This document shows positions 1,380-52,169 of a DNA stretch of 54,554 bases, piece after piece. Source of the DNA: a virus (lineage: Duplodnaviria > Caudoviricetes); IMG/VR virus record IMGVR_UViG_3300033998_000134, positions 1 through 54,554 of that record; one strand, written 5' to 3'. Made by a program: the position numbers and the translations under genes. The notes under the pieces are model-generated. The model made no database searches. It was not told where the DNA came from and saw only the letters and a program-made list of their open reading frames with translations. Numbering within the stretch: the first letter of the stretch is position 1; each line of letters starts with the position of its first letter.

Positions 1380-1423
1380 CAAATGTGAGTATTATAATGT
1401 TCATCGACGTTTGTTAGAGTTAA
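1380..1423 (-). promoter_or_regulatory. Putative late promoter (motif TTAACTCTAACAAACG-N24-TTTG) upstream of portal
   Basis: 16-bp motif at 1408-1423 with TTTG at 1383-1380. The same spacing recurs at three other late genes. Confidence 0.65.
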
Positions 1424-4400
1424 TTACTGATTGCCGTTCAACTCTACAACTTCTTTTCTTAGATCAAAAATCATTTCTTCCGCCTGCTTCTGTTGCTGCG
1501 GATTCATCTCTTTCATTTCTCTTTCAATTCGTTTTATCTCTTTTATCCGATCATATATAGCGTTGATTTTAGGCATGTTTAGTTCACTCATCACGCGCGA
1601 GTATTCGTCAATACCCATCTCGCCTTGTTGGACCTTCTCCGTATATGCTTTTGCCCTCCTTCGCGATTCTATGACCTTATCGTATATATCGTAATACCTG
1701 CTTGAGATTCCGCTGGATTGTAACTGAAGATCGTTTTTATCTGCATAGAATGCGCGAAGCGGCGTCTCCCGGACTTTAATATCCAGCTCACCCGTTTTTG
1801 TAAAATTATATACCTCACTTGCTATGCCGACCCCTTGTTCGGCTATTGTATAGAGCCCTCCAAAATATCCCCTCAGCAGATGATTTGTTATATCCGGATT
1901 GAGACTTATCACTCCTTTTTTCACACCGTCTCCACCGGTGAGATGATCCAATATCATAAACCAGTCAACCATGAAATTGGGCGCATAATATTCGCCTTTC
2001 TTGTTGGTTCTTGCTTTCAGGTATCCGGGCATATTTTTGTTTGCCCATTCGTTATAGATGCGCGACCCCATAAAATTGGTGTTCCATTTAATCTGCGCAA
2101 GTGGACGAATAAAGTCTGGGGCTATTTCGGCAAAGCTTATTTCCGCTGCGCCAAGCGGGTTCATCGGAAGGAGGTCTGACACGGAAAACATCGTATCCAT
2201 CAACACCTGTAAGATGTCTTTCCTGCCGGTGTACGCCTGATAGATATTGTCTCCCATGCGGCTGAATATCCTTAGTTCTTGAGGAAGCGGTATTTTAAGG
2301 AAAGATCCGTTCGGGAGTAACACACACCAGTTATTTTGTCTTTCCCAATCAGATAGCTTCATATAACTATCTTCTCCATCATCGCCTCCAATCATCGCGG
2401 CCAACAGGGGTGATATAAACCCGATAAGCGCATACGATGAGAGGATGGCGGCCATCTTCACCGGATGTTTATTGGTTACTTTCACGATATTGCTAAGCGC
2501 CTGTATGGCTGCATTGGAAAACAAATAATATGGCCTTACATATCCGGCTAATGAGAATATAAATTTCTCGAAATTGTTTTTCCCTACGCTGGATCCTGCC
2601 CCCTTTTGGTTGAAGTTTACCGTGATGTTCTTCGCATCATTAATCGAATCGATGATGCTTTTGCCGTGTTCGCGAGAGGTAATATAAACAGATAACCTGG
2701 TCGTATTTTCTGCCACTTCGTTAAACATATCGATAACGTCTATGATCGCCCTTGCATGATCCGCAAAATTTTTCTTTCCGCCTTTTTGCGCTTCTCTCTC
2801 CAACGATTTTGCTACCCTGTCAAGCTCAAAGATATGGGAGAATCCTGTTTTACCTCCATTGATCATGTACTCGTAAAGATATTGATCGGATTTTTTATTC
2901 AGATCGACATTTCCTCTCTCATACCTTCTTAGTGCATTGGCGGCTGATGGCAGATTTCGCTGGAATTCAAGCATAAACTCCGGCGTTTCTTTCGCAAGCA
3001 ACATCGTAGTGGAATAAATGTAGTCTCGCGAGAAGTTTGTCATGACAAAAAGCGGGTTTCGGGTAGTGAAGTTGGCCGCCATGTTTCGGGTAGCATTAAG
3101 TATCCATGACATGTTTTTGGCTTTATCAACTCTGTTCGCTCCGTTGATTGCTTTTGCAATAGCCGGGTTTGCATTGATATAAACCGTATAACTTATGCCG
3201 TTCTGGTAAACTCGTATTTCATGCTGTTCTGCCTGTTTTGGTTTAATGAACAGATCGCCAATATCCAGCCTTGCTCTCCCCTGATAGGCCATACCCTCCT
3301 TTTTGAGCTGCTGCATCCTCTCCTCAAAAAGTTGCTGGTTTTGAAGATAGGTATCAAGGTCTTCGCTGTACGGTGCAGATTGTTGCTCCCATATCGGTTT
3401 TTCTTTTGTGCCTATGTTAACCTTCCACGTTTTGGTGGCAGACATCAACCCTCCGTTCTCCTTCTGTGCAAGCCTTAGGATAGACTGCTTAAGGGTGTTT
3501 TTATTGCCTTGCACTATGGCCGAGTGAGCCATCTGTTCAATAAAGGCAAACGGGCTTTCTGCTCTCGACCTTCGCCCTTTGGCTCTCACCAACGGAGCAG
3601 TAAAGAATGTTCCCATATCGGGTGTATAGTCCCATCTGTCCTCAGCCGTTTCCTTGTCGTGTCCCCGAAGTGGAACGTAATATCGGTATCGATTCATCAG
3701 ATCGTCATAAACCTCTTTGTTTATCATACCGGTCTGATACTGCTTGGTCAGCGTCCAGTGGGTTGCGTTATTGATCGCCGCCCACAATCTGTTGATATCC
3801 TCTTCTCCGGCCTTATTCTCAAAGCTGTCGATGAACATCTCTGCCGGTTGTCCCAACTCTTCTTCCAGTGCAGTGATACCCGCGTAATCATTCGGAAGCG
3901 ATTTGATGAATGCGGCTCTCTCGTCTTCCTCAGCCTCCGGATGATTGTTTTCCCATTCCTCTATGGCGGCATTGCGCATGTATTCATTGCGTTCGATACC
4001 GTGCTTTGCGAATACATAGTTTTCGATATCACGGTATTTAAACCCTTTATTTACGAGTGCGCTGACGGCAAGTGTGATCGGATGTTGGTAACTGTCTTTG
4101 AATATTTTCAGCTGCGAATCGTTTTTCCCCTGCAGGTGTGTTGCCTGCTTGTAGAAATCGTTGTATTCTGCTATCTCGACACCGTTTTTTCTTAAAAGAT
4201 CGAGAAAGTCTTTTACCGGCAAAAACGTGTCCTCCCACGCCTCGCGGAAACGGGTGAAAAACCGATCATATTTCACATCATACTCCTTGCGAAGATCTTC
4301 CGGCATTTTCGATCCTGTACGATCTGCGACATCCGACACGCTAAATAATGGTTGGTTAGGCAGCTCTCTCTGTTTGAAATACCAATCGCTTACTTCGCGT

Positions 4401-7400
4401 GAATAATCCTCCAGACTTTGCCCCTCTTTTTGCCGTGGCATCGGCGCATAAGCCGATTCCGCTATTCCTCCGACACCGGATACTCCTCCATAGCCTGGAA
4501 GAACAGTTCCGTCCTCCTGTTGTGGCTGATAGGAGACTTCTCCCGGCCGATTAATTCGTTCGCCCTTCGGTATGCCTCTCTGGTTATCTCGTAATGCATC
4601 CGCATCCGATTTTCTCCCGCTCCGTACTCGAGCACCACTTTGACTAAATTCTCCTTCTGTGACATAATCTAAATATTTTATGATTACCGGTAAAATGACA
4701 TCTGCTTCCTTTATTCTTGCAATATCTCTCCCCGTGAAAATTCTCCCTACGGCAAATGCAAGCAATTCGTTTACTTTTTCCTCTTTATCGAGCTTATGAT
4801 AGTACGCATGAAGATTTGCGTTCAGAAAATTATCGTCGAGGTTGTTTATCAAAGGTACTAATAATTCTTTTTTGTCCGATATCCACGCATGAAAATTCTC
4901 ATGCGCCCACACTTCTGCTACATTTTTCGCCTTATCGAGCGAAGACGAATTTAAGTATATTACACCATTAAAGAAAACTCCGTTAAGCTTGGCTTTGGTT
5001 TTCTCGGCCATGCTAAGCAATTCACTGTCGGCCCCCATCATCCGGAGGGATTCAAATACGTCTTTTTTTGTTGGGAGCACTACTGTGTCAACCGATTTCC
5101 TATACCTGCTCTCCAGCTCATCGACCATATCCGAAACGATTTTCGTCTTTTCCTGTGGCGTTTTTGCGGCGTTAAGAAGGGTGTCGATATCTTCACTCAT
5201 CTGCGCTATACTGAATAACGGCATCCCGTTTTCGGCATATCCGCGCATATCGTCCGTAACAGGAATAGACTGTTGCGCTCCTGTTTCCGGCAATTCGATG
5301 GTCTCTATATCTACGCCGAAAGGTTTGCTGATTTTTTTTACGACGCTCGGAACGATTTGGTCATAAAACGCCCTCATTCCTTCGCCGCCAACTTTCAAAT
5401 CATCGCCACGAAAATCGCCACCCCCTTCGTTGATCGCTTTTAAGGCAATTTCTTTCCCTACATAGTCGGAAAGGTTTTCTTTTGTCGCGGTTGCTATATT
5501 CTCAAGCTCTTGCCCCCCTTTTGGAACAGCCATAATGGAATACTGCCCGTTCTCTTCGTCTATAACGATTCGATCCACCTGCTTGCTCAGATTGTACCTA
5601 TCGGCCTGTTGCTCTCCCGTTGTCCATGCAATTCGGTCATAACCGTTCTCGGCTGCATATCGCATCATTCTGCGGAATGCAAGGGTTATCCATTGGTCGG
5701 TTTTTTTGAAAGGCATATCTGGCACCTTATATCTTTCGGAAATGATTGAAAGCTCTTTCATTTTCTCTAACACCTTGCTGTCCAATTCTACATCATCAAG
5801 CGCTTTCTGATAATCCGAATTTGCCTTGTCGTATTCCTTTTTTATTTCCTCCATTCTTTGCTGAATGGAATTATAATCCTTGTTATTTCTTACCTTTTCA
5901 AGCTCCCTGTTTAATTGAATATACTCTTTATTATTCCCCAATAACCATATTTCTGAACCAAACATCTTCTGTTCCGTAGATCCTGCCCCGACGGGTAGGC
6001 CTAATTCATGCCTTCTGTTAATAGCTTTTTCAAGATTTTTATTCGATTCTTCTAAGGCTTTTTCAGCCCTCAATACATCTTTATCCTTCCCTGTTTTAAA
6101 CCCGTGTCTCTTTCCTTGCTGCGCCCAGTCTGATTGTATCTCTTCCAGGAATAAAATTCTCTCACCGTTTGCTGTCCTTTCATCGAAACGGATGTGTGCA
6201 ACGATATTAGGTTCATCGAAATGGAGTGAACGGAATTTTTCATCGCTTATATCTACATCATCGTTTACCAAATCAGAAAATTCACGACGTTCTGATTCTG
6301 TCATTTTCTCTTTTGCTCTTAACTCTTCATATCTTCTCCTCTTTTCTGATATTTTATGCGGCATTGTCAACAACAATTCGTTGTATTTTTCGCCACCAGG
6401 AAGTACGTAATAGGAATATTTGGTGCTATCTTCTCTCGATCTATCTAACTCGCTAAGTTCTTCATAAACAAGATCCTCGTAGTATAAGTCCATCGCATCG
6501 AACATTTTCTTATAATCACTATATCCGTTTTTTGCAGCTATCTCGTTTAATATATCTTCATCAGCATCACCTTTATAATATTCATCCCATCGCTCGATCG
6601 GTTCGTCAATACCAAACTTTTCTCTCGTAGCTATATCGGCATTGATATAAATATCTTGTTCTCTTTGTATAATTTCCCCCTCAGTAAGTGGTTCATTTTT
6701 TTCTTTCCTTACTTCACTTATTTCGATCTTATTTTGGTTGATCCAGTCCTGTATCTCGGCTTTTGTTACCGATTTACCGGTGAAGGTTTCATCCCATCCC
6801 ATCCAGTCCAACTCGGCCTGTTTAGCCCCGTTTTTCAGCAGCATGGCTTTGAATTGTTCGGGTGTACCTTTCTCCTGTTTAATCTTCTCAAGCGCATCTT
6901 CAACGGTAGAATAATATCCGGCTTCATCAACTACATGGAACATTAATCCATTGTAAGTAGCACCCGGAACGTTTTCGGATTGACGCGGCTCATATCCGGC
7001 TTGTTCATCAGCAAGTAGCCCTAATTCATATAGACTTTCATAATTATTGATGATATCGTCATCTTGCTTTATCGTTATCACATCGAGGAGGTCGGCTCCG
7101 ACGATGTTTAATGCCTTTTTGATCCTCTTAAAGTCCAACTGAATGCCGTTCGTAGAAAGGATGACGTTCTCTCCGTGTCTCCCTACTTCTTCGAGTAGTA
7201 TTTTGTTTAGCTCATCTGTTGATACGTTGCCGTCGATAAGTACATACCTGTTGATATTATTCGCTCTGTCAATAATCAGGGCATGAATCTTATCTACCGT
7301 TCCGCGTTTTTGTTGGCTTAATAACCGGGCAACGTCAACCGAACTCTTTATTTTTTGTTTTTCCGAGAACGGGGTATATAGCATTTGCCTGTCAAATGAA

Positions 7401-10400
7401 TAAACATCAACCCGGACGGGTTCACCCTGAGCTGGACCTCTTGGCGTATCGATCGTTGTGCGCGACCATTCTGAAAATTTGGCATATTTCCCCGAATCAA
7501 GGTTGATAATAATTGACGGCATAACCGAGATGCCAAGTACCTCGCCAAGCTGTTCAAGGTTTCTATGCACTGAAATATCCTGAACTGATGGCTCAAGCTT
7601 TCCGGACGGATGGTTGTGTACCATCCACATCTTTGTTGCTCTGAAGTCTTTTGCGGCAGGAGCTATTAATTTAGTATCTACGATGCTCGATGTGGATGAT
7701 CCGGTAGTTAGATATAACACACGGTATTCGCCATTATCTTTCGCAAGGACAACAAACACATTTTCCGATTGAGCCCTTTCAAGATTTTTAAATAGAAAAG
7801 CAACGTCGTTGGCGTCTGTTATCTTAACGGGTCCCGTTAATGGATTTCCTACAAAATCCAGGTGGCCTCTGTTTATCAGAAGCCGCTCCATGTTGGTTAT
7901 TCTATTATCGATGGCCGGATCGTAACCCGCTTTCCGTTGTACGTCTCTTGTTTCGGGGTCAGCACCGAAGGCTTCATCTCTTTTTGCGGATACATCACCG
8001 TTTTCTTCGTCCCAGTTGATTTGGAGGTTGATTGCTTTTTGCTTTCTTTTTTCATTTGGTTTATTTTTTGCAAGAGTTGCACCTTTTTCGTTAACAACTA
8101 AATTATTATCACTTGGTCTTTCCCAATTTATTCCCTGCCTTTCGAGTAATCTTCTGGCGGCTTGTGTCGATTCATTGTCCGGATGTCCTTGTGCCGTTGC
8201 TATGAGTAATTCTGTTCTGGAGGGAGGACGTATCTCTCCCTTCGCTACTTTCTCGGCGTATTCCTTCCTTAATTTTTCTCTTCGCTCATTATTCTCTTTC
8301 ATGTCACCCATTACGCGGCCTATATTTTTTTTCTTGTTGGCATCGTCCTGAATGTTCATGTGTAGTGCCGGCTCTGATCCGGACATGAATGGCGCCCCAT
8401 TCATGGATAGGTATTCCTCTTCTGTTATTACCGGAATATTTCTCCTTTGTTGTTCCCCTCCAACAGTCTCTTGCGCTTTCTTGAGAATATCGATTGGCTC
8501 GTCCTTATTTTCTTTTTGTTCAACCGATTGTTTTTTAATGTTTTCTTTTTGATTAACCTTTAAAGGCTCTTCCTGTTCTTTTTGTTTCTGATTTACAGTC
8601 AGTTTATTCTCTTCATTTAATAAACCATGCTGTGATTTTTCACTTGAAGTTGTCTGTTTTGTATAACTTTCAGTATTAACCGTTTCATCAATGTTCGCCA
8701 TTTGCCCTTCCGTTTCATCTATCCATGCCACGCTATTAATCGGAACACGTGCAGAATACACATTTTTTCCGCCGGCATAATCTTCGGCCATCATTCTGGA
8801 TGGGGTAACAAACACTCCGTTTGCTATCGGGTAGGATGAATATACTGTAATCTGACCACTTTTTAAAGCCTCCGCCATATCGGCTGCCGTGAAGTCCGGT
8901 GAAGCTTCATCTCCGCTTTCAATTAATGGAGAGAACGCTTCCTCTGCCGTTAGGATTTCATCTGCCGATCTTATACCGGTATGGATATCGTCCTTCATCG
9001 GATTTGAGGCCTGAATGATGGCAAACTGTTTCTTCTTCAGCTCAGCATCAGTCTCTTTTATTCGTTGCTTAAGAGATTTTGCAGTACCCTCTTGCATGAT
9101 TCCAGCAACTCCCTCAGCGTTTTGGCCTCTTCCTCCCTGATCATTTTGCCCATATCCGATTGGGCTTGCAGATTCTTTTGGTGTCTCTGCTTCTCTCTCA
9201 TCAGCTCGATCAGTTCCTTCTGCGCCTTCGTTATCGACAGAGCTACCCGTATCTCGTCCTTCTCCATCGGCAGGGACGGATCCTTCTCCAGCATCCTGTT
9301 GATTATTTCCAACCTCTCCTGTCTCGTCATAATCATTATTATTTGCTACAAATTTATAAAAATATTCGTAAAACTCGTCTTGTGTTACCTGATTAACATA
9401 ATATTCCTCTATTTCATACGTTGATATCTCGTCGTCCTTTGCCTCTGATCTTAGTTCGAGAAGTATTTCGTTTTGCGATCTTTCGTTTGGATCGATATCC
9501 CATGCGCCGCTCATGGCTACTCCGGCCTGCATATCCAATTCGTTAAAAATCTGTTCAAGCCTGCTTTCGTTAATATCGGATATCATCTGACCTTTCGAGT
9601 AGTGAGTATAAAGCACATCCAGCACCTCATCCAAAACGCCCATAGTATCCACATTATGAAACCGGACACCTATTTCGTTTTCACCTCCTTTTGAGACAAC
9701 GTCCTCCCATACTTTGTGCGCAAAAGCTTCTGGCGTTAAAGCATTTGTTTTCGCTGAACCTAACAGCCCTATGTATTTTCTTCTTTCCTTCTCTTTTCCT
9801 TTCATCCCAAGATGACTTCCGAAACCTTTTGACGTAGGGGTATCGGACCATAGAATACGTTGCCCATTGATAAGCTCTCGCATGATATACTCGCGCAAGG
9901 ATTGCGGTTCTCCCCACCACTCCTCGCGCTGTTTTGGCGTCATTTTTTCAACCTCTTGCCGAATAGCTTCTTTTTGTTTTTCAATATCATTCAGAAAACG
10001 ATCAGCATCAGTCATGTTTTCGTCTATTGCGGCCTGTTCTTGTTGTTCTCCCTGTTGGATAACTTTGGCCTGGCGCTTTTCCTTCGGTTTTGTAGCTTGT
10101 TCGGGAACATCTGCTGGCGCTTTTGTTGTTACGGATTCTTTTACCGGTTCAATATTTGTGTTTTCGTCCGGTGCTGATTTTGCAACCTGCACATCTTCCC
10201 TTACCGGTGCTGCATTGCTTGTATAATCTTGATATATTTTTTGCTGCGCCAAAAGATTTTCTACAAGATCATTCTGTGCAATATTGAACGGATCGGCATC
10301 CAGCTTCGCCTGCTCCTTTTTAATCCTTTCTTTTAGGTTGTCAACCATCTTGGTGGCGGCACGTAATGCCTTGTCCGTACCGTATTGGTACTCAAAATAT

Positions 10401-15293: not shown

Positions 15294-15337
15294 CAAATTA
15301 AGACATTCGATTTTAATATTATGTTTGTTAGAATTAA
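15294..15337 (-). promoter_or_regulatory. Putative late promoter (TTAATTCTAACAAACA-N24-TTTG) for the ejection-protein operon
   Basis: Motif at 15322-15337 with TTTG at 15297-15294, the same 28-nt offset as the other copies. Confidence 0.6.
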
Positions 15338-17684: not shown

Positions 17685-18008
17685 TTATTCCTTATCCACT
17701 CGAACGGCGATCTCGATCGCAGGTGCGTCTGTTTCATCCGTGATCGCATCTATTCTGCTTGTCATTTCATCCCAAATTTGTTTTGCTCTCGAATCATTCA
17801 CATCCAACAAACCTTCAAAGTGCCTCACGCCGGATATCACGGTTGAATGACTACGCCCCGCATTCCGGCCTATTTCGGTCCATCCCATTTTTAAATTTCT
17901 ACGCATAAACAGGTAAACCGCTTCGCGCTTATCTACTGCCTCTCGTTTTCTCGATCGGTTAAATACGTTTTCGCAAAACACGAGCTCAAATAATTTTGGT
18001 AAGTCCAT
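17685..18008 (-). CDS. DnaA C-terminal-like HTH DNA-binding protein
   Basis: RSRKREAVDKREAVYLFMR..GWTEIGRNAGRSHSTVISGV matches the DnaA domain IV pattern. Confidence 0.75.
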   Translation of the reverse strand: MDLPKLFELVFCENVFNRSRKREAVDKREAVYLFMRRNLKMGWTEIGRNAGRSHSTVISGVRHFEGLLDVNDSRAKQIWDEMTSRIDAITDETDAPAIEIAVRVDKE

Positions 18009-29943: not shown

Positions 29944-30141
29944 TTACACCACCTTGTTTTTAAGGATTAATCTTTCAATGCTCGCAAGGTTATAGAAGTA
30001 CTTGCCTCCGATCCGGGAGAAGCTGATTGCCGCTTCGTCCCTTAATGTTTGCAGAAAATCGTCACTGCAGTCCAGATAGGCCTTAGCCTCTCTTGCCGAC
30101 AGCCATGTCTTGTGAACTGGTTCAACTTTTCCCTGCTTCAT
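29944..30141 (-). CDS. Excisionase-like HTH protein
   Basis: KTWLSAREAKAYLDCSDDFLQTLRD...FSRIGGKYFY, a MerR-like/Xis pattern. Confidence 0.7.
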   Translation of the reverse strand: MKQGKVEPVHKTWLSAREAKAYLDCSDDFLQTLRDEAAISFSRIGGKYFYNLASIERLILKNKVV

Positions 30142-37165: not shown

Positions 37166-37209
37166 CAAAAATAAACTCAAGATGGTAGTCATTCGTGTGT
37201 TAGAGTTAA
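37166..37209 (-). promoter_or_regulatory. Putative late promoter (TTAACTCTAACACACG-N24-TTTG)
   Basis: Motif at 37194-37209 with TTTG at 37169-37166. Confidence 0.6.
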
Positions 37210-39311: not shown

Positions 39312-39350
39312 GTTCTTTTCCGCTTTTTGTTTACATTATTTTCGCTCTTT

Positions 39351-39899: not shown

Positions 39900-39940
39900 A
39901 GTAGTTAATCCTGTATTTCAACCAATTCATTTTGCTGCAT

Positions 39941-41021: not shown

Positions 41022-41102
41022 TGCCTGTATTTTATTTTGTTTTTAATTAATAGTTACTTTTCCCGGAAACGGGATGAACTTATTTCTGATGATTTTCAAT
41101 AA

Positions 41103-42101: not shown

Positions 42102-42112
42102 AACGGCAATGT

Positions 42113-42499: not shown

Positions 42500-43905
42500 A
42501 ATTGTTGTTCTTTATCTTTGTGAATTATTTCTCCATCTTTCTCGTAAACGTCGCTACCGGATATGCTCAATATTGATGTTCGGTCATAGTCAAAATCATA
42601 ATGCTTGTTGCCTGACCTGTCTGTCATTACGGTCCTGAAAGATGTTACGTTATGCTCTTCCAGCGTCTCGATAAAGTTTTTAATTCTTATCGAGTTTATG
42701 ATCAATCGGTATTCCTTTTCATGGAACCTGATCAATAAGACCCATCTCCCGGATCCTTGCGATGTACGAATGTCTTTCTCCCATTCCAGTATGTCGATAA
42801 CATCATTTATCACCACTGACGCACCTATCCTCGGAACATCGAAAAATTTCTTGCCGTCCCTTCCTGTTACACTGTTGTTCGCTTTTATTCCTAATCGCTT
42901 TATATCTACTCCTGTCATCTTATAATATAATCTTTTGCAGTGCTTATTCCCATGTTTTAACATGCCCCAAGCTGCTGCGTCAATCTCTTTTAATCGCTTC
43001 TTATTGGTTGCGCGGCTTCTTCTTTTTAGCCAGGCCGATTTGTTTCTCTTCCTCCAGTATAAATCTCCACCCGGGTAAATCATGAATCCGAGATAACTTA
43101 ATCCAAACGACACTCTGTGGATTTTCGGAACATGGGTTTTAAACCCCATTTCGGCCAGCCTTTCATTTGCCTTCTTCATGAATCTTTTAACCTCTCCCTT
43201 TGTCTTTCCTAAAACTACATAATCATCCATATATCGGATATAGAACTTCATTCCCATTTCCTCTTTCGCCCAATGATCAAAAGACGAAAGGATCAGATTT
43301 CCTATTATCTGGCTTGGCCTTATACCCAATGGGATTCCTATATCCCCAAATCTGTTTATCGGCTCCATCATCGCATCGATATAGCTCTGATCCTTGTAGA
43401 TCGATTCTAATGTGCGTCTTAACAGGTCGTGCGGGATACTTTGATAAAACTTACGGATATCTCCCTGTCCATACCATACCGTTTCCTCAGGGTATTCTCT
43501 CAACCATCGTTGCACTCTTAATGCTCCAGCTATCTGTCCTTTTCCTTTCCGGCTGGCATAGGTATCATAGATGAGATTTTTCTCTACCCTCTTTTCGCCG
43601 GCGGTGACCAACGATTGATGGTAAATGTGGTTCGGATGAAAGTTAAGTTTTGATATTTTACGCACCTTTCCTTGTACGCTTGTCATATCCTTATGCTTGT
43701 ATTCATCCGTACGTATTGTTTTATCAATAAGTCCGCTCTGTATCTCACACAGATTCCTAATCCTGTTATGCAGATGCGATTTTACATAATGTCGTTTTAG
43801 CTTGCCTTTGGTAGCCGACTCTTCGGCTTTCGTCAAATTATCCCAATTATACGTCTTTCTGTACGTGTATCCTTCTCTTTTCATTATTTTCGTTGCTTGC
43901 TTCAT
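42496..43905 (-). CDS. DGR reverse transcriptase with an approximately 140-aa C-terminal extension
   Basis: TYASRKGKG, GDIRKFYQSI, GIPLGIRPSQ (DGR-type SQ motif), YIRYMDD and YLGF; adjacent to TR. Confidence 0.93.
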   Translation of the reverse strand: MKQATKIMKREGYTYRKTYNWDNLTKAEESATKGKLKRHYVKSHLHNRIRNLCEIQSGLIDKTIRTDEYKHKDMTSVQGKVRKISKLNFHPNHIYHQSLVTAGEKRVEKNLIYDTYASRKGKGQIAGALRVQRWLREYPEETVWYGQGDIRKFYQSIPHDLLRRTLESIYKDQSYIDAMMEPINRFGDIGIPLGIRPSQIIGNLILSSFDHWAKEEMGMKFYIRYMDDYVVLGKTKGEVKRFMKKANERLAEMGFKTHVPKIHRVSFGLSYLGFMIYPGGDLYWRKRNKSAWLKRRSRATNKKRLKEIDAAAWGMLKHGNKHCKRLYYKMTGVDIKRLGIKANNSVTGRDGKKFFDVPRIGASVVINDVIDILEWEKDIRTSQGSGRWVLLIRFHEKEYRLIINSIRIKNFIETLEEHNVTSFRTVMTDRSGNKHYDFDYDRTSILSISGSDVYEKDGEIIHKDKEQQL

Positions 43906-44084
43906 TCTCTACGGAGCGTTCAACATCTAAGTTACTAACACCGTAATGGTGATGCCCTGAGGCTATTCACGCAAGGTTATTTTGTTTCTTCTGCATGTAG
44001 CATACGGCTACACCGATGAGGCTTTGACTGGTCGGATGCTTTCGTATGACGCACTAATCACATCCTGATAATTATTTGAAGTAT

Positions 44085-44188
44085 GGCGGGCTCCGATGTT
44101 CGACCACGAGTTCGTCCAGGCGTTGTTCGAGTTCGAGCAGGCGAGACCGCAATTCGCACCGTTCTCAGCGTTGCCGCCCCAGAGCCAC
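44085..44188 (-). repeat. DGR template repeat (TR)
   Basis: 104-bp match to 44330-44433 with 10 mismatches, 9 of them at TR adenines; 7 AAC and 1 AAT codons in frame. Confidence 0.95.
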
Positions 44189-44244
44189 TTTCCAATCATA
44201 TGCCTGCCACCCGGATCAGGTGGACTTTTATCTGTATCAATCCA

Positions 44245-44266
44245 GCAGGGGGACGCTTCCCCCTGC
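44245..44266 (-). other. DGR target-recognition hairpin downstream of VR
   Basis: GCAGGGGGA-4nt-TCCCCCTGC, a perfect 9-bp stem about 10 nt after the target stop codon. Confidence 0.8.
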
Positions 44267-44276
44267 ACCCCCTAAT

Positions 44277-45623
44277 TTACGCGAGCATATCGCCTCCGCT
44301 GATTTCATTCACATCCCCAAAATAAGCAAGGCGGGCTCCGATGTTCGACCACGAGTACGTCCAGGCGTTGAACGAGAGCGAGCAGGCGAGACCGCACTTC
44401 GCACCGTACGCAGCGGCGCCGCCCCAGAGCCACACCTGACCTGCAATATTGTAATAGAAGTAGTCGTTATATGATACGCCGGCTTGCACTGCATATGGAA
44501 ACATAAACGCAGCCTGCTCTCCCATCGCTATTAAATTCATTTTATGTGCAGTGGTTGCTGTATTTGAAATGGCTGCACTATGGCGATGTGCGACGAAAGT
44601 TTTGATCTTTTCAAAATCTGCCATAGTGGGGGCCGATGTGGCCGGCATAAAATTGTCTCTCCATACCACTACATCGTTATTGATCGAACACATGTGTCCG
44701 TCAAATTCCCAAAACTGTCCCCACGGGTTTTCAAAGGAGAGAACCTTTACGGAGTTGCAGGTAGCCCCTGCCGAATCGAGCACCGATGATTTCCCGTCCG
44801 CTGTACCGAGACTGAGTGTTTGACCGGTAACGATAGTATATTGGTTTGTTGCTACCGCACTTCCCGTACCGTCAAGACCTGGACCCCATACCTTCGTAGC
44901 ATCAGCTAGCTCACACTCCTGGCTACCTCTTTGTCCATAAGCGGCCATCATATACCATAACAGCATGTTTCTGAAATGCACTCCTGCCAGCCCGTAGCTT
45001 TTACCGTATAATTGTGCGCTATCCCAAAATTGTTTTACTGTTTTCGATCGGGTTGGTACGACATTGGGAACCGATCGTAGCCGTCCGCTTCCATCAACCC
45101 ATCCCTTGAACATGCCAACATACTGAGCGGGCTCTGTCCACCCCGGTAGATCCAAAAGTGACAACCATAACCGTTGTATCGTTTTGCCGGCTATCTCAAC
45201 CGTCTGAATATAGCATCCGGTTCTGGGAATCTTACCCATGAAGTTGGCGTTGGCCAAAGCTGCTACCGCACTTCCGGTCACAGGGTCAACGGCCGGTGAT
45301 CCATCAGCGAAATACCGGTTATCCTCTCTTGACAGCTCGGCGAAGTTTCCCGTTTGATCCATTACTCCTGCTTTCCACTCTCTTACCCATAGATTGAACA
45401 TCTCCCTGTTGCCACCTACGTTCACTTTTAGCGGAGTTGATGCCGGTTCGTTTACGTCAATGTAAAAAGCTACCTGGTTCAGATAAAGGTCATTATTTTT
45501 GATAATGCCTTCTTTTAGGTCTTTCATGGTTGTGCGGCCGACTGTATTTCCGAAAACACCTAAGATCTGATCCTGATCCGTAAAGTCGGTGACCAACTGC
45601 GCTTGTCTTAATTCTTTATTCAT
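44277..45623 (-). CDS. DGR target protein (putative receptor-binding protein, CLec-like C-terminus)
   Basis: FENPWGQFWEF and a C-terminal VR encoding WGGAAAYGAKCGLACSLSFNAWTYSWSNIGARL. Confidence 0.9.
   Translation of the reverse strand: MNKELRQAQLVTDFTDQDQILGVFGNTVGRTTMKDLKEGIIKNNDLYLNQVAFYIDVNEPASTPLKVNVGGNREMFNLWVREWKAGVMDQTGNFAELSREDNRYFADGSPAVDPVTGSAVAALANANFMGKIPRTGCYIQTVEIAGKTIQRLWLSLLDLPGWTEPAQYVGMFKGWVDGSGRLRSVPNVVPTRSKTVKQFWDSAQLYGKSYGLAGVHFRNMLLWYMMAAYGQRGSQECELADATKVWGPGLDGTGSAVATNQYTIVTGQTLSLGTADGKSSVLDSAGATCNSVKVLSFENPWGQFWEFDGHMCSINNDVVVWRDNFMPATSAPTMADFEKIKTFVAHRHSAAISNTATTAHKMNLIAMGEQAAFMFPYAVQAGVSYNDYFYYNIAGQVWLWGGAAAYGAKCGLACSLSFNAWTYSWSNIGARLAYFGDVNEISGGDMLA
44330..44433 (-). 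repeat. DGR variable repeat (VR)
   Basis: Changes relative to TR: AAC->GCC, GAG->GCG, AAC->TAC, AAT->AAG, AAC->CTC, AAC->TTC, AAC->TAC. Confidence 0.95.
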
Positions 45624-45676
45624 ACTTATATACTTTTTGTCTAAAACTACCGGCTTTGGCCGAGTAGTGGTTTATG

Positions 45677-46723
45677 TTATATAATTGTTACTGTTCCTAC
45701 ATAGTTGGCATCCGAATAATATTCGGGGCCTCCACCGATAGGGGTGTTCTTACAATCAGCGGCAGTGACGGTTACGGATTTCCCTGTGCCGCTTTTGGTT
45801 ACAACGCCTAATGCATTGTAAATATCCCATGTCCAATCTGTATCGAGTGTAGGAAGGGTGACATTATTCTTCATAAGATAAAATTCAAATTGGCCGTTTG
45901 TTGTCTGGCTAACAAAATCGACTATCCTGTGCACCCTCACCTGGTATTCATCGGCAATATCACTGATATGTTGACCATCCTGCGCAACGGGCACCCCATT
46001 AAGAAGTAATATGGCTACATACATGCTCGCGCCCGATACATCATCCCTGGTTACCGTAATCGACGCCGTTGTATCCGGCATTTTCACCTTGTCTTTATAC
46101 CACTCAACAGTATAGCCATCTTCTCCGATCGTTATGTTTTTCACGCCATAATTTGCCTGCAAGGAGAGTACAGTAGATGGGTTTAATGCATCCAGAACGA
46201 TTCTTGGTGTAGTGATAACTACATAATGAGAGTCGCTTCCTGCCTGCTGGATAACAATATCCATGCTGCCAACGTAAGAGTTGATCATTCCGTTGGAAAT
46301 GTAAGTAAGGCTGTATCCTATCTGCTTATTGGCTACCTGTGTCGGTGATGCGATATTGTTGATGATCTTGAAAAATACTTTTCCGTCAAACTGCATCATC
46401 TTAAACTTGTTATCCGTTGAGGTTCTCCATCCTGTTTCGTCTGCAGAAGAAAATACTATCTGAGAACCATCGTAGGTGAATACGGCCTCAATAATACTCA
46501 CTGGATATCCAACCGCGCTTTTCGCGCTAAACTCACATATCGGCTGCTGGTTCGGATCTGTCCAGTCAACAGACAATGCCCCCGAAACAATATCGACGGC
46601 CTGAAACAATGCCGCTCCTTTTCTAACGCCATTGTCTATCCTGTATATCTCTCTTGTGATATACACATCATCTCCTATTTTTAAGAAGCGTACGGTGAAC
46701 GCTCCTTTTACTTGTTCTGCCAT
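45677..46723 (-). CDS. Tail structural protein (Ig-like, beta-rich)
   Basis: YTVEWYKD..SITVTRDDV and WTWDIY..GKSVTVTAADC patterns; in the tail operon. Confidence 0.6.
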   Translation of the reverse strand: MAEQVKGAFTVRFLKIGDDVYITREIYRIDNGVRKGAALFQAVDIVSGALSVDWTDPNQQPICEFSAKSAVGYPVSIIEAVFTYDGSQIVFSSADETGWRTSTDNKFKMMQFDGKVFFKIINNIASPTQVANKQIGYSLTYISNGMINSYVGSMDIVIQQAGSDSHYVVITTPRIVLDALNPSTVLSLQANYGVKNITIGEDGYTVEWYKDKVKMPDTTASITVTRDDVSGASMYVAILLLNGVPVAQDGQHISDIADEYQVRVHRIVDFVSQTTNGQFEFYLMKNNVTLPTLDTDWTWDIYNALGVVTKSGTGKSVTVTAADCKNTPIGGGPEYYSDANYVGTVTII

Positions 46724-46926
46724 ACTTCGCTATTGATTAAATTGTTTAGTTCTGCTCTGCTTACAAGCTTCCCGCCGAGATTTACCGCCCATACATCCGG
46801 ATCGCCAAGATGTCTTAACTCATTCTCATTCACTATCATCTTTGTCTTTGAAGGGTTAAGACGATGTAAATGAATCCTGATCCCGTAGGACTCTGCTCTT
46901 TTCTTATTTACTATTGCGTATTTCAT
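46708..46926 (-). CDS. Small tail-module protein
   Basis: 72 aa, overlapping both neighbours. Confidence 0.6.
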   Translation of the reverse strand: MKYAIVNKKRAESYGIRIHLHRLNPSKTKMIVNENELRHLGDPDVWAVNLGGKLVSRAELNNLINSEVWQNK

Positions 46927-48167
46927 ATCATATAATAATTTCCAGATTCGTCTGTATATACGTCTCCCGCCTCATCCGTTGCCAGAGAACTTGCTCCATG
47001 TGGATCAACATCAAAGCCAACAGAGAAGTAGTTGTCGTTCTTGGTCACCCCTACGCCTGTGTCCGATAGGGGAATCTCGAGAGAGGCGCCAATATTGTGT
47101 TTTACTTCTCCCGCACTGATCCAGCTACCAAGCACATTGTCATAAGTTCGTGCCTCTGTGAACCACGTGATTTTGTAGTATAATTCCGGATATGCTATCG
47201 TTCCGTTTTTTAAGTTTACAATTGCCTTGTTGTAATACATTTTCTGATGTGGCGAGACATCCGATCCGAATGCAGGAAAACACTCGTACACTTTTTCTTC
47301 TTCTCTCCTTATAGAGAATGCTGCTTTGGCGAGCTGCTTTGTATTGCGGTATATCCTTACTTCATATTCCTTTTTGCTTATCAGCCTCAGGTCGAAGTTT
47401 ATCAACGGAAACTCGATAGATATTACTTCCGGATTTTTGTCGCTACCGGGTATAATAGCCGTTGGTGATCCTATCTCATAAAGCTGAAGTGTTATTCCGG
47501 CAGGTAATGAGGTTATATTATGGCTTCCGCTGTTAAGGACAAGGGAAACGGACTTCTCAAAACTTCGCTCATCCTTGTAGGCGTTACGATCTCCTGCCGG
47601 TATAAGATTATTGGCAAGCATGTAATCATACAGCAATAGGTTGTCTAAAACAGGATTGTAAACAATATGAGGAATATCAACACTAATTCGGTACAGATCT
47701 TCCCCCAGATCGGTGGTGGACATTGACAGTTCGTTGCTATGCACTGTCTCTATTTTGGGTCTTCTCCAGTCCTCGAACTGTGCCTCAAATGATATGATCC
47801 ATGTTTCTGTTACTGGCGTATTCCTGAATATCTTTAATGAGCCTTTTAATTCATTGTCTGCGGTAATAATCTCATACTTTCCGGTAAATTCAGGAATATC
47901 TTTTATATCAACTCCATTAAAGAGCCATTTGATTGTTTGAGACGATAGTCTCGCATTTGCATTTCCATCGGGAAATATACCGTCCTTATCTTTCACCATC
48001 ACATAAGGACGTATAATGCATGGCGATACTGATCGGTCAGGCTCGTATTCATCCAGCAATGCATTAGATACTTGCACCAATGGCGAAAATGGAGTCGTAC
48101 ACTCGATAGAGCAGCTTATGTTTAACGGCTCAAAATCAAGTCTTGTATTTTTTACTGTACTTCTCAT
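46923..48167 (-). CDS. Tail structural protein
   Basis: 414 aa with EYEPDRSVSP motif; ends DEAGDVYTDESGNYYMI. Confidence 0.6.
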   Translation of the reverse strand: MRSTVKNTRLDFEPLNISCSIECTTPFSPLVQVSNALLDEYEPDRSVSPCIIRPYVMVKDKDGIFPDGNANARLSSQTIKWLFNGVDIKDIPEFTGKYEIITADNELKGSLKIFRNTPVTETWIISFEAQFEDWRRPKIETVHSNELSMSTTDLGEDLYRISVDIPHIVYNPVLDNLLLYDYMLANNLIPAGDRNAYKDERSFEKSVSLVLNSGSHNITSLPAGITLQLYEIGSPTAIIPGSDKNPEVISIEFPLINFDLRLISKKEYEVRIYRNTKQLAKAAFSIRREEEKVYECFPAFGSDVSPHQKMYYNKAIVNLKNGTIAYPELYYKITWFTEARTYDNVLGSWISAGEVKHNIGASLEIPLSDTGVGVTKNDNYFSVGFDVDPHGASSLATDEAGDVYTDESGNYYMI

Positions 48168-48709
48168 CTTATTTTGATATATGACATGATACTGCTTGCG
48201 TCACGGGTTGCTATTAGCGTGAACATCGTACCGGTTGATCCTTCCCTGAAATTGAGATCGTCAAAGGTGATCGTAAACTCAAACCCCTTGTTCATCCCAT
48301 GAACCTGATCCCATAACTGATCGCTGTAATAGTCTCCGCTATCTCTTTTTACATCAAGTTGTCCGTATTGCGATGTGATGGCTCTGTTATATCCATCATA
48401 TATAGTGCATTTTATAGTCTGTATATCGGCAGGCCCCATAGCGTATAACTCCTGATCAATCTGCATGTAACGTATCAGATTCACATTTTCACTGCCAAGA
48501 TTCAGCAGTGCCCATTCCTGCGTATCTGGATCCCAATAAACGAAACTCTTTAAGGAATAAACAAAAGCAAACCAACCATATTCACCGCCTGATGGATATC
48601 TCGCATAAAGCTCTTCCTTATAGATGGCTGGCTCTTTCAGATACTTCAGTATAGGAATCCGATCCAATCCGGGTATCTCGATCGTCTGTGATGGGATGTA
48701 TATTGCCAT
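48164..48709 (-). CDS. Virion/tail protein
   Basis: 181 aa with ELYARYPSGGEYGWFAFV motif; ATGA overlap with the next gene. Confidence 0.55.
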   Translation of the reverse strand: MAIYIPSQTIEIPGLDRIPILKYLKEPAIYKEELYARYPSGGEYGWFAFVYSLKSFVYWDPDTQEWALLNLGSENVNLIRYMQIDQELYAMGPADIQTIKCTIYDGYNRAITSQYGQLDVKRDSGDYYSDQLWDQVHGMNKGFEFTITFDDLNFREGSTGTMFTLIATRDASSIMSYIKIR

Positions 48710-48716
48710 TCATCTA

Positions 48717-49418
48717 TTACTGTTTTACCGTTGTTACTCCATTTTTTACGCTCTGTAAGCCGGGAAACATTTCTACGGCTCTTGCATCAAGCGCCTGCGC
48801 TATATTGTTCTTCTCGTGCATTGTAAATACTGTGCTGGCGGTGATATAGGCAAGCGGCTCTATTACCTGATCGCTCAACCCCAGCTCTGCGGTCGTTTCA
48901 ATATCTCCTAACGGCGTTACTACCGGTACATAAATAGCCTGCTCTATAACGTGAGATGTAAGATTCTTGCTAAGGGAGTAATATCTCAAAACATGCTTTA
49001 CTGTTCCGGATACCTCTTCTAAATCAATAACGCAAACAGGTCTTATCTCTGATCCCCTTGTATAATCGTTAGACTGTATGGATGATACAAGCTCATTTGC
49101 CATAGATGCCTCCTTCACCGCTTTCTGCCACCCCTGCATTTTGAATGAACTTAATAGGTAAAAGTCGCTGGGTAGCTCTACGTATCCTGTTCCTTGTGCA
49201 AGGTTAGGGAAAAGTCCTGCGCTCTTAAACGAATTATTCTTGAACCATGAGCGAGGCATCACCTTTACACACCTACGCCAGGCATCCACGTATGAACCCT
49301 CTATCTGCCTATCCAGCTGAGCGGTATCCGCACCGATGAACATCGTGCCTGCCGGATCTGCCATCGAGGCTTCATTCATGATTAGCAGCACCCTGTTTAT
49401 AAACTCTTGTTTTGTCAT
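48717..49418 (-). CDS. Putative head-tail adaptor
   Basis: MTKQEFINRV..., VELPSDFYLL and EPLAYITAS; located after the capsid gene. Confidence 0.55.
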   Translation of the reverse strand: MTKQEFINRVLLIMNEASMADPAGTMFIGADTAQLDRQIEGSYVDAWRRCVKVMPRSWFKNNSFKSAGLFPNLAQGTGYVELPSDFYLLSSFKMQGWQKAVKEASMANELVSSIQSNDYTRGSEIRPVCVIDLEEVSGTVKHVLRYYSLSKNLTSHVIEQAIYVPVVTPLGDIETTAELGLSDQVIEPLAYITASTVFTMHEKNNIAQALDARAVEMFPGLQSVKNGVTTVKQ

Positions 49419-49496
49419 CTCGATCTTTTATGAATAAAGGCTGTCAGCAGCATCACTGACTACTAACAGCCTCATTAATTTAAAAGTGTATGAACG

Positions 49497-49880
49497 TTAC
49501 TTATAATTCGGAAAGATAACGCCAAGTTCTTCGGCCTTGGCCAACACTTGCGCCTTCCTTCCGATATCAGATTCGTTTACGCCATACTTGGTTGTAAGCA
49601 CTTCGATAGCGTCAATCATATTCTTTACCTCAGGAAACTCATCTCCTATTCTTTCTGCGGCTTTATTTTCATCTATAGAATCTCCCACTACGCTTACAAG
49701 GACAATCTTTCTTTTCTTAAATAAATCGCTTTCCTCAATCGCTTCCGCCAGCTTCGGATCTTCAACGAACGCGACTGCTCCTGGCCCGCTGAATGATACG
49801 AACTCTTCTTTGCCGTCAACACCGACGTAGAAGTTATACTCTACGCCGGTAGTTGATTTATATATCCTGTATGATGTCAT
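49497..49880 (-). CDS. Hypothetical protein downstream of the major capsid gene
   Basis: 127 aa ending AKAEELGVIFPN. Confidence 0.6.
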   Translation of the reverse strand: MTSYRIYKSTTGVEYNFYVGVDGKEEFVSFSGPGAVAFVEDPKLAEAIEESDLFKKRKIVLVSVVGDSIDENKAAERIGDEFPEVKNMIDAIEVLTTKYGVNESDIGRKAQVLAKAEELGVIFPNYK

Positions 49881-49892
49881 ACCCTTGTTTGT

Positions 49893-51278
49893 TTATGCCT
49901 TAGTAACTCTAACGTGTGCTTTCGGATTCTTCAGAACAAGTCCGCAAATCTCCATCAAACCGCGCGCATCACTGTCGGCCTGCGCCGATTTTCTCAAGTC
50001 AAAGTTGGTCACTCTCCATCCCATTGTCCATTTTCTCAGGAAGTCGGGGTCAAGAATAAATCCGCTGTTAGACATACCCAAGTCATCAAGTGACTGATCA
50101 TGCGTAACCATCAGTACGCCAAACTTGCTGATATACTCAGTGAATTCAATGCCGTAAACCTGTTTGCGCGTGCCTACCGATACGTTGGCTACATATCCGT
50201 TGGTCGAGCCCTGCAGATACAGATTCTCCATGTCTTTCAGTAAGCCGCTTCCAACGATCAATAGTTTACGTTTTCCGGAGTTTGTTCCGGTAAAGGCTGT
50301 CATCATGAGGTCGGTCATCTTTGCAGCGGTTACAGCGCCTCCAAAAGAAAAGTCTTTTCCTGCCTGAGTCCAGATTCCTTCAGTCCAGAACACGTCTTCG
50401 GCCTTCGTGGTATGTGCATTTTTCACTTTCTTACGCCCTTTAACCCCTTTCCATAACGAGAAATTTTGGGTACGCTTCATATCGAAAATGGCTTCCTCTT
50501 CTGCATCGCTAAAGTTCCATTCCACTTCCTTATCTGCTTTGTTGAAGATGTCGGTGATTTCAACTTGGGCGATAAACTTTTGTAAATGTTGCTCAAAGTC
50601 GGTTGGTACACCGCTGTAAGCATCGGTAGATATCTGACTTTCTGCGGCAGCACGTCCAAAACGCGTTAGCACCGTGTTAATGGGAATAGCCGGGATGACG
50701 TCTCTGCCTGGTCCGGTTCCGTTATAAGTAACAACCAGCGGATTGCCTGCGGCAGATTTTCCTACAACATATAACTGCAAATTGTGTTCTGTATCAACGG
50801 TAGATCCGTCAGCTAAATAGCCTGGCACGCCGTTTACGTTTATCGTCTGTTCCGATGCGAATATGTCCTTGTTAGATGTAACGAGCTCTACCTGTGTGCT
50901 GCCTGCTGTAACGGCAGTGGTAACGGTAGCCGTAGTGTCGATGGTATCGATGGCATAATGCCTTACTACCTGTCCGGTACTCGTCTTTACGTCTTTAATA
51001 TTCCTCGCAATCGTGTCAAGCACCACATCGTAGGGTCTGATCTTGGTAACCTTTTTATCAATCTGATCCAGAATCAGATTAACCGATTCCTCATCACTCA
51101 TGGTGCGGGATACAGAACTATTCTCATCAACTAACACAGCCCCACCTCCGGCAGGATTAACCACATCGGATGTTACAACACCTGCGTCTGCAATACCAAA
51201 TACGGCAAGTAACGCTACAAGCAGGAACATCAATATCCCGCTTTCTTCCATTTTGGATAAAATCTTATTCATTTTCAT
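49893..51278 (-). CDS. Major capsid protein with an N-terminal hydrophobic segment
   Basis: Follows the scaffold-like gene; DQIDKKVTKIRP, HLQKFIAQVE, TEGIWTQAG and CGLVLKNPKAH. Likely start MKMNK; hydrophobic run ILMFLLVALLAVFGI. Confidence 0.75.
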   Translation of the reverse strand: MKMNKILSKMEESGILMFLLVALLAVFGIADAGVVTSDVVNPAGGGAVLVDENSSVSRTMSDEESVNLILDQIDKKVTKIRPYDVVLDTIARNIKDVKTSTGQVVRHYAIDTIDTTATVTTAVTAGSTQVELVTSNKDIFASEQTINVNGVPGYLADGSTVDTEHNLQLYVVGKSAAGNPLVVTYNGTGPGRDVIPAIPINTVLTRFGRAAAESQISTDAYSGVPTDFEQHLQKFIAQVEITDIFNKADKEVEWNFSDAEEEAIFDMKRTQNFSLWKGVKGRKKVKNAHTTKAEDVFWTEGIWTQAGKDFSFGGAVTAAKMTDLMMTAFTGTNSGKRKLLIVGSGLLKDMENLYLQGSTNGYVANVSVGTRKQVYGIEFTEYISKFGVLMVTHDQSLDDLGMSNSGFILDPDFLRKWTMGWRVTNFDLRKSAQADSDARGLMEICGLVLKNPKAHVRVTKA

Positions 51279-51297
51279 GTTCAAAAAAATTATGTTA

Positions 51298-52086
51298 TTA
51301 TTCAACTGTTTCCATTTCGTCAAAGAACGACTTCTTTGCGATTTGTTTTGTTTTTGGTTTTACGGGGTTCCGCGTAACGGTCCCCATTGCCGGCATATCG
51401 CCTTCGATTTTGCCAAATTTCATTTCCACTTTTTCGTTTTTGCCTTCTACGTAGCCGGTGTTGGCAGCTTCCTGAACATCGGCATCATAAGTAATTCCTT
51501 TCGCCACCGTCTCGATGATTTGATCCGAGAAATTACCCATCAACATATCCTCTGCCGCCTGTACCAATTGATACCGCAATCTCTCGGTATTCTCTTCGGA
51601 TAGACCGTTTGCCTTAGCATACTCATCCACCCTTTTCATTGATTTCAGGAAATTTTCTTGCGCCAGCTTACCTTCTGCCTCCGTTTTCTTTGTCTGTTCC
51701 AGGTATTCGGCGTAGCCTTTTTCCATATCGTTTAGTGCATCCTCATCCTGTAGAAAATCTTTTCCGTACAATTTTGCAATCACGTATGCCGGATTCCTCC
51801 GATTACCGTTTTCATCAGTCCCCATGATTCCGGCAATGAGCGCCCCTAAACGCGGATCTTCCGCAATACGCTTTGCGAGTGCAGAATTTACTTCGTTTTG
51901 CTTGTCATATCTACTTTTGTAGCTATCGGCCTCAGATAAGACGTAATCATACAGGTCATCATCCGCAGGCTCTCCCTCGTAATCAGGATTTGATTCTCGC
52001 CAGCGGTTCATGACTGCATTCCTTCCTCTTGGCGGCTGCTCCTGTACCGGTTTTTCCTGCAGAATTGTTTGTAAATCTTTCTCCAT
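51298..52086 (-). CDS. Putative capsid scaffolding protein
   Basis: Acidic, helical 262-aa protein immediately upstream of the MCP. Confidence 0.6.
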   Translation of the reverse strand: MEKDLQTILQEKPVQEQPPRGRNAVMNRWRESNPDYEGEPADDDLYDYVLSEADSYKSRYDKQNEVNSALAKRIAEDPRLGALIAGIMGTDENGNRRNPAYVIAKLYGKDFLQDEDALNDMEKGYAEYLEQTKKTEAEGKLAQENFLKSMKRVDEYAKANGLSEENTERLRYQLVQAAEDMLMGNFSDQIIETVAKGITYDADVQEAANTGYVEGKNEKVEMKFGKIEGDMPAMGTVTRNPVKPKTKQIAKKSFFDEMETVE

Positions 52087-52125
52087 TTTTTATACAGATT
52101 AATTGTTATCTGACAATATCAGACA

Positions 52126-52169
52126 CAAATATGCAGTTTTGAAGTTTGCCGAGTGTGTGTTAAAGTAAA
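52126..52169 (-). promoter_or_regulatory. Putative late promoter (TTTACTTTAACACACA-N24-TTTG) for the scaffold/capsid/tail operon
   Basis: Motif at 52154-52169 with CATATTTG ending at 52126; same 28-nt offset. Confidence 0.6.

Follow-up and report, generated by a model that had tools for sequence, protein, structure and literature searches.

A 16-bp box exactly 24 nt before TTTG in front of four late genes: evidence for a proposed phage-specific late regulon in a temperate podophage-like virus

The viral record IMGVR_UViG_3300033998_000134 (Duplodnaviria; Caudoviricetes) was analysed over its full 54,554 nucleotides (nt), here called the window. It is the complete genome of a temperate, podophage-like virus, whose host is probably of the Proteiniphilum type (Bacteroidales). 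Four places in this genome carry a 16-bp box that is followed, after exactly 24 nt at all four sites, by the tetranucleotide TTTG, the G of which lies at 1380, 15294, 37166 and 52126. All four sites lie on the coding strand directly upstream of late genes. In the comparisons the window is labelled G000 and its relatives bear G or L numbers (G004 is also labelled L023, and L111 is a contig of a metagenome-assembled genome (MAG) of Proteiniphilum). The boxes and the relatives that hold an orthologue of each are:

1423..1408, minus strand: late box 1, TTAACTCTAACAAACG, right after the stop codon of a gene for 3944 amino acids (aa) and before the portal gene; orthologues in G001, G002, G004 and L111
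15337..15322, minus strand: late box 2, TTAATTCTAACAAACA, before the ejection-protein operon; orthologues in G002 and G004
37209..37194, minus strand: late box 3, TTAACTCTAACACACG, which overlaps the stop codon of terL and precedes a 136-aa gene; orthologue in G002
52169..52154, minus strand: late box 4, TTTACTTTAACACACA, before the scaffold-position gene; orthologues in G001, G002, G004, L111, L189, L190, L191 and L193

Apart from the portal gene, the boxes precede the following units:

14635-15270, 13268-14629 and 1424-13258, minus strand: ejection-protein operon, made up of a gene with a weak T7_gp14 match, a 453-aa gene and the 3944-aa gene
1424-13258, minus strand: last gene of that operon, encoding the 3944-aa polyvalent protein with a RadC/JAB domain, LPD38 and a weak LPD14
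36740-37150, minus strand: 136-aa gene directly after terL
51298-52086, minus strand: scaffold-position gene, which opens the capsid-tail-lysis-terL run and stands directly before the SU10-type capsid gene

Sites 2 (15322) and 4 (52154) lie in divergent intergenic regions, and therefore some promoter is required there. Direct reading found the four 16-mers, each with TTTG 24 nt downstream, at the minus-strand places given for them in a preliminary description of this DNA. The degenerate 16-mer with up to two mismatches had six matches in the window where 1.32 were expected, a number reached in none of 100 shuffles. Four of these matches are perfect; the other two (31945 and 40817) are imperfect, intragenic and without TTTG at 24 nt. 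The full composite of box, 24 nt and TTTG was found four times on the minus strand, and neither on the plus strand nor in the reversed control. Its minimal form, AACAMACR-N24-TTTG, occurred four times against 0.05 expected (0 of 100 shuffles reached four), while the 8-nt core by itself occurred 19 times against 8.1 expected. When all 16-mers at fixed gaps before TTTG were compared with each other, the four sites clustered at gap 24, in a comparison that is noisy below 12 of 16 identities. The four-site architecture is real and very far from random.

Six viral contigs encode related capsid proteins. In G002 (55.7 kb, capsid 87% identical) four boxes stand at the four orthologous places, again 24 nt before TTTG, with differing spacers, and G004 (capsid 69%) has three boxes with the shifted consensus TTAATnCwAwCAACCr. 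The Proteiniphilum contig L111 has two, and four metagenome contigs, found by way of a 131-aa protein (p131) encoded beside box 4, have one each before the scaffold gene. A loose regular expression run over these sources gave no extra sites, leaving a total of 17, 13 of them beyond the window. Box identity was 0.73 for orthologous pairs and 0.76-0.82 between promoters within one genome, values that are inflated because the regular expression fixes nine of the 16 positions, although the free positions still carry 0.5-1.7 bits; identity over the first 20 nt of the spacer was only 0.38 and 0.33-0.40, respectively. The window, G002 and L111 also agree in having AACAAAC at the portal and ejection promoters and AACACAC at the scaffold and 136-aa promoters. 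Box, 24-nt spacing and TTTG were thus kept at orthologous places while the spacers diverged. The data support the view that the four sites act as one phage-specific set of promoter-like elements. Matches with one mismatch in G004 and G005 were dropped, as their level equalled that of the reversed control.

The 136-aa gene of G004 is inverted, lies behind an 847-aa gene and lacks a late box. Around 37645-40648 of that genome both genes share one strand and come after the early operon, while they are convergent in the window and in G002.

The sites might also be no promoters at all but chance repeats, packaging or replication signals, or elements acting at the RNA level. The count of four against 0.05 expected, the conservation at orthologous gene starts despite diverging spacers, and an orientation that is constant with the genes leave this reading hardly any probability. 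Rfam gave no family at the sites, and a shared stable RNA fold was absent (z-scores +1.41, +0.27, +0.68 and -0.77), which also speaks against an RNA-level element. Four sludge metatranscriptome runs compared with 36000-54554 yielded short contigs of relatives on both strands, assembled contigs in which 5' ends are not visible, with zero cover at 41.6-49.0 kb.

In the hosts, a -33 TTTG sits about 19-21 nt upstream of the -7 element. At all four sites this TTTG is absent, and AACAMACR occupies its position. If the G of the downstream TTTG is numbered -5, the box extends from about -48 to -33, its best-conserved half AACAMACR covering -40 to -33, and it therefore stands in place of the host -33 element. 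The numbering follows the host primary-sigma promoter as described in a published account, where the G of TTTG is position -5, T-12, A-11, T-8, T-7, T-6 and G-5 of the -7 element TAnnTTTG are nearly invariant, and the -33 element is generally weakly conserved (PMC6847099). The downstream elements of the four sites, with the transcription starts predicted about 5 nt past the G, are:

1380..1383, minus strand: TTTG of the -7-like element CACATTTG (CAcaTTTG), site 1; predicted start near 1375
15294..15297, minus strand: TTTG of TTAATTTG, site 2; predicted start near 15289
37166..37173, minus strand: TATTTTTG, a perfect TAnnTTTG, site 3; predicted start near 37161
52126..52129, minus strand: TTTG of CATATTTG (CAtaTTTG), site 4; predicted start near 52121

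The distance from TTTG to the start codon is similar to that of host promoters. The window sites have TTTG in four of four cases, A-11 in three, T-12 in two and T-12 together with A-11 in one, and the 17 sites of the family have T-12 in 14, A-11 in five and both in three, giving a late -7 consensus of TTtATTTG as against the host TAnnTTTG. The earlier statement that the TA is degenerate in all four has to be corrected, since site 3 has the perfect element TATTTTTG and sites 1 and 4 keep the A. The associated claim of weak -7 elements held in part: A-11, near-invariant in the hosts, is present in only five of 17 sites, but site 3 is perfect and the host -33 element is weak in general. Altogether the -7 statistics agree with weak late promoters in need of help, without being a proof of them. 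In the early divergent promoters, located at 31021 and 31086, TATATTTG is perfect.

The portal ATG lies at 1372, and the predicted leader would be 3 nt in the window and 0 nt in G004 and L111, where the gap between TTTG and ATG is only 4 nt. If transcription starts 5 nt after the G, the portal mRNA of G004 and L111 would be a leaderless late mRNA.

More distant lineages have other boxes at a comparable position and before the same genes. G003 carries TTTCATTTCTATTACA before two late genes, and G009 has copies of GTTTTCGACAT. In G006 and G008 (portal about 32%), the portal, scaffold and gp14-like genes have ACAAAAC-like cores lying 21-22 nt upstream of TTTG, and in G010 two late genes have a palindromic TACCATTAGCCTAATrG lying 22 nt upstream of T(T)TG. 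The records G134-G138 share the composite ATTTACAACRTA-N24-TTCG; in a search open to gaps of 18-28 nt, all seven matches had a gap of exactly 24 nt, and the reversed control had none. Prophages of this type are carried by Parabacteroides sp. AM08-6 (L115), and another prophage is found in Odoribacter laneus YIT 12061 (L112). Only two matches to this lineage composite occur in the 4.2-Mb Parabacteroides genome G136, one on the portal-bearing contig of L115 (C46) and one on C30, where a 40-nt string is identical to that of virus record G138. Such a pattern would be expected if each lineage has its own recognition factor.

The composite TTWAYNYYAACAMACR-N24-TTTG was sought in 121 host-family genomes (about 400 Mb) and gave four matches, with none in the reversed control. 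Two of these lie in a prophage contig of G011, one in a coding region and one in an intergenic region, near which no similarity to window proteins was found. For the genomes covered, this near-absence means that the box does not mark a host regulon, and the earlier designation as a phage-specific late regulon is supported by both the conservation of the box set in relatives and the essential absence of the composite from host-family genomes outside prophage. A host alternative sigma factor or host regulator that reads the box, with the phage borrowing the signal of a host regulon, would be suggested by AAC-containing cores that recur in distant phage lineages and could indicate something common to the hosts. 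Besides the near-absence just described, the G134-G138 composite is absent from the Parabacteroides genome outside phage contigs and the boxes differ sharply among phage lineages, so that we regard reading by a host factor as very improbable.

Because relatives keep the design and host genomes are without it, the boxes most likely mark phage-controlled late promoters. We favour, with somewhat better than even confidence, bipartite late promoters that would be read by a phage-encoded factor. Their downstream part would be the -7-like TTTG element, readable by host RNA polymerase with the primary sigma factor, and their upstream part the 16-bp box, standing in for the host -33 element. The box would be recognised by a DNA-binding factor that the phage encodes and produces ahead of the late phase. 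Bound at this fixed position, the factor would recruit or activate RNA polymerase, and the portal, ejection-protein, 136-aa and scaffold/capsid-to-terL units would thereby be switched on together. Binding of a factor to the box, like the start sites, is something we infer.

Several points weigh against these phage-activated promoters. The perfect host -7 element at site 3, and at three of the 17 family sites, might work unaided. A missing -33 element is no proof of weakness, because this element is weakly conserved in the hosts anyway (PMC6847099). Sites 1 and 3 lie directly behind late genes without a terminator, and therefore read-through could express the genes downstream of them. The TTCG of G134-G138 fits poorly with plain primary-sigma recognition in that lineage. 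No recognisable activator family (Mor/C, Ogr, MotA or RinA-like) and no sigma domain was found when the 58 open reading frames (ORFs) of the window were scanned with E limits of 0.001 for PHROGs and 0.01 for Pfam.

The strictly invariant 24-nt spacing in two lineages would also suit a phage sigma-like subunit, too diverged for detection, that reads box and downstream element together, the sites then being promoters of an alternative holoenzyme. It would account for a downstream element that shifts with the box, from TTTG to TTCG in G134-G138, and for a late -7 consensus unlike that of the host. The scan of the 58 ORFs, however, gave no Sigma70 region 2 or region 4 match, no protein of sigma size is common to G000, G002 and G004 outside the structural genes, and the downstream element of the present lineage is the ordinary host TTTG; we consider a sigma-like subunit unlikely.

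The position of the box would likewise be compatible with repression, since a protein bound to it, at about -48 to -33, could obstruct sigma region 4 or the alpha subunits. The box could then be the operator of a phage repressor that shuts constitutive late promoters in lysogeny or early infection; the perfect -7 element at site 3 is in line with this, and lineage-specific boxes would be expected equally. Most sites, however, are without the near-invariant A-11 and so are not constitutive-looking, and the box is asymmetric, strictly oriented and set at a fixed distance, features typical of an activator that works from a defined face. Moreover, the region of the CI-like repressor has different operators, CGCArYATCGACATA occurring twice within 31090-31133. 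An operator function of the late boxes is for these reasons improbable. The two copies (31090-31104 and 31119-31133) lie between the CI-like gene and the early operon, in an early control region (31021-31133) with perfect TATATTTGC -7 boxes at 31021 on the plus strand and 31086 on the minus strand.

The closest functional analogue is phage Mu. Its four late promoters (Plys, PI, PP and Pmom) deviate from the consensus in their core elements, each has a conserved activator site that adjoins or overlaps the -35 region, and C activates them together (PMC4461284). The present case is alike in having four presumed late promoters with a conserved site at a fixed position by the -35 region (four of four sites here, 13 in relatives). 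It differs in that the host polymerase uses -33/-7 elements, in the want of a C/Mor or, as in P2, an Ogr/Delta homologue among the 58 ORFs, and in its asymmetric box, whereas Mu C binds as a dimer, as depicted in a figure legend of that account (PMC4461284). The design also resembles that of promoters read by the Bacteroidota primary sigma factor, with TTTG at four of four sites and the full TAnnTTTG at site 3, but departs from it in the rarity of T-12 with A-11 and in AACAMAC at -33 instead of TTTG.

T4 middle promoters are read through sigma appropriation by MotA and AsiA, the MotA box (about -30) replacing the -35 element. Here, too, a host-type downstream element is kept and the upstream one replaced by a phage box at fixed distance; unlike in T4, no MotA or AsiA homologue was detected in the window, the MotA box is nearer, and the T4 system is a middle one of a virulent phage. 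MarA, SoxS and Rob are monomers of roughly 130 aa with two helix-turn-helix (HTH) units. Each binds, in a single orientation, an asymmetric stretch of about 20 bp that adjoins or overlaps the -35 region. By analogy, p131 could act like MarA on the asymmetric 16-bp box, although it has no AraC-family match and resembles HTH proteins only weakly in structure (best Z 6.0). With no detectable homologue of the Mu, T4 and MarA proteins here, the proposed factor would work like them without being a member of their families.

Literature listings on TAnnTTTG in phages, late promoters of Bacteroides phages and Proteiniphilum prophages do not describe the motif, and no account was found there of how late genes are switched on in temperate Bacteroidota phages. 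Phage late promoters with a specificity box would thus be new for a phylum in which none was found described in the literature searched, and as a regulon they are well supported by the comparisons. The architecture offers annotators a means to delimit late operons in widespread uncultured Bacteroidales phages, and it gives experimenters defined DNA sites together with a small set of candidate regulators. Orthogonal, phage-inducible promoter-factor pairs for Bacteroidales genetics could also be derived from it, and a box that changes by lineage at a constant place is a small natural experiment in the co-evolution of regulator and site.

The early regions of G000, G002 and G004 are mosaic, and the only non-structural genes common to the three encode p131, a rhomboid protein, a 117-aa protein (15412), a DnaA-C-like protein, an HTH_17 protein, a 76-aa protein and the integrase. 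The first two lie beside box 4:

52269..52664, plus strand: p131, a basic 131-aa protein divergent from box 4, with two similar helix-helix-strand-helix units
52804..53319, plus strand: rhomboid-family gene downstream of p131

Among the proteins considered as reader of the box, p131 is the best candidate, on circumstantial evidence and with odds well short of even. It has an isoelectric point of 9.5 and is an internal duplication, each unit being predicted by AlphaFold (pLDDT 89.7, pTM 0.80) as a long helix, a helix, a strand and a helix. The search of representatives gave 895 clusters for its family at E up to 0.001, nearly all of 120-170 aa, and 169 clusters at the stricter limit of 1e-10; no informative fusions were listed. 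The p131 profile was found in nine of nine related records at E up to 0.01 and in seven of nine at E up to 1e-10, with E 1.6e-21 in G005, and the gene is divergent from the scaffold promoter in eight of eight relatives with a tblastn match. In helix 50-61 the G004-type p131 has IKWLILQ and the others IKRLxWE, and the box differs in parallel, with TAtCAACC in the former and TAACAmAC in the latter; this covariation is weak evidence because it is a single evolutionary event.

Foldseek gave no match of p131 in PDB and BFVD at E up to 0.001, and the best E-value of the PDB sequence profile was 0.062. VIA-align returned a best Z of 6.0 (the HTH of TnpE, 57 residues), many HTH and winged-helix chains at Z 4-5.4 and an AraC-type chain at Z 4.1-4.3, all of which are below the trust level. 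No Pfam family was found among 16 members, and the Atlas held hypothetical proteins only, without a name in any source. Instead of a box reader, p131 could be a small terminase: in G006 and G008 its gene lies directly upstream of terL, separated from it by the rhomboid gene in G006, and small terminase genes are usually found at this place. A more far-reaching reading, which we consider doubtful, is that p131 and its many unnamed relatives form one large family of small two-lobed phage proteins that serve Bacteroidales podophages as monomeric specificity factors for late transcription, each protein reading the 16-bp box of its own lineage. If true, the family would be the Bacteroidota counterpart of sigma appropriation, co-diversifying with the boxes, and p131 would give the host polymerase access to promoters without a -33 element and, in some lineages, without the host -7 consensus.

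A rhomboid-family intramembrane protease gene stands behind p131 in every relative where it was detected. The pair (52269-53319) is present in every lineage examined, down to 22% capsid identity, divergent from the scaffold/capsid genes.

Two smaller proteins and the 136-aa protein come into consideration besides p131:

17685..18008, minus strand: DnaA-C-like HTH protein of 107 aa, near the end of the early/replication operon; second candidate
29944..30141, minus strand: HTH_17 (excisionase/AlpA-like) protein of 65 aa

The HTH_17 protein is a further candidate because it is common to the three phages with this box type (84% and 60% identity); that it is the factor is nevertheless unlikely. The DnaA-C-like protein matches PF08299 (Bac_DnaA_C) with 32.4 bits against a cut-off of 31.5 and shows 40% and 38% identity among these phages; it went undetected in G008 and G010. 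Its signature residues differ between G000 and G002 despite the same boxes. The DnaA box is of 9 bp with the consensus TTATCCACA. To the eye, the 3' halves of boxes 3 and 4 (TTTAACACA and TCTAACACA) resemble this consensus in the CACA end and the T-rich start, and boxes 1 and 2 have CAAA where boxes 3 and 4 have CACA. We judge it improbable that the DnaA-C-like protein is the factor, and give the 136-aa protein no better prospects; its AlphaFold model (pLDDT 77), the best VIA-align hit (Z 5.5, to membrane helices) and the Atlas (at most 0.82) were uninformative. Both candidates named in the preliminary description, the 131-aa and the DnaA-C-like protein, are thus possible readers, while there is a substantial chance, though clearly short of an even one, that the box is read by something else.

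The 117-aa protein (15412-15765, plus strand) has a GAPxGNxNNPKGRPKGAKN motif and a weak DUF5681 match, and is always divergent from the gp14-like gene; its role may be that of a small terminase or of a protein binding the minor groove of DNA. Between its gene and box 2, at 15320-15403, lie two copies of TGTAwATCAATCAAT with adjoining palindromes (ATCAATCAAT/ATTGATTAAT). The 3' end of box 2, read as its reverse complement, is TATGTTTG, a perfect -7 element on the opposite strand.

The remaining gene content is that of a temperate phage. An exact direct terminal repeat of 127 nt (1-127 and 54428-54554) leaves a true genome length of 54,427 nt; the genome is therefore circular or circularly permuted, and the portal gene (653 aa) spans both ends of the record. 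The scan of the 58 ORFs identified a P22-type portal and an SU10-type major capsid protein, terL, a muramidase and a holin, and also an integrase, a CI-like repressor, RecT, an SbcC-like protein, a replisome organiser and a DnaC-like loader. The best genome match of the portal (81%) is L111, and megablast of 36000-54554 found no match in the named phage collection.

One further gene lies between the muramidase gene and terL:

39351-39899, minus strand: 182-aa gene, its product combining a lipobox at the N terminus, a coiled coil and a membrane helix at the C terminus

Because of the lipobox and the C-terminal membrane helix, assignment of this protein as the small terminase was dropped, and it is more likely a unimolecular spanin. 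A stretch at about 33976-34030 (minus strand), adjoining the integrase gene, resembles the 3' part of a tRNA (GGTTCGAATCC arm) and is probably the core of the attachment site; ARAGORN found no complete tRNA in the whole window. The N6/N4 DNA methylase gene (22438-24528, minus strand) contains an apparent intein (Intein_splicing, E 9.5e-8, under the Pfam cut-off) in a stretch of low guanine-cytosine content (0.33-0.34). A diversity-generating retroelement occupies 42496-45623 (minus strand), with its reverse transcriptase at 42496-43905 and a repeat pair of 110 nt, 89% identical, at 44079-44188 and 44324-44433, the second copy of which lies at the 3' end of the tail-protein gene 44277-45623.

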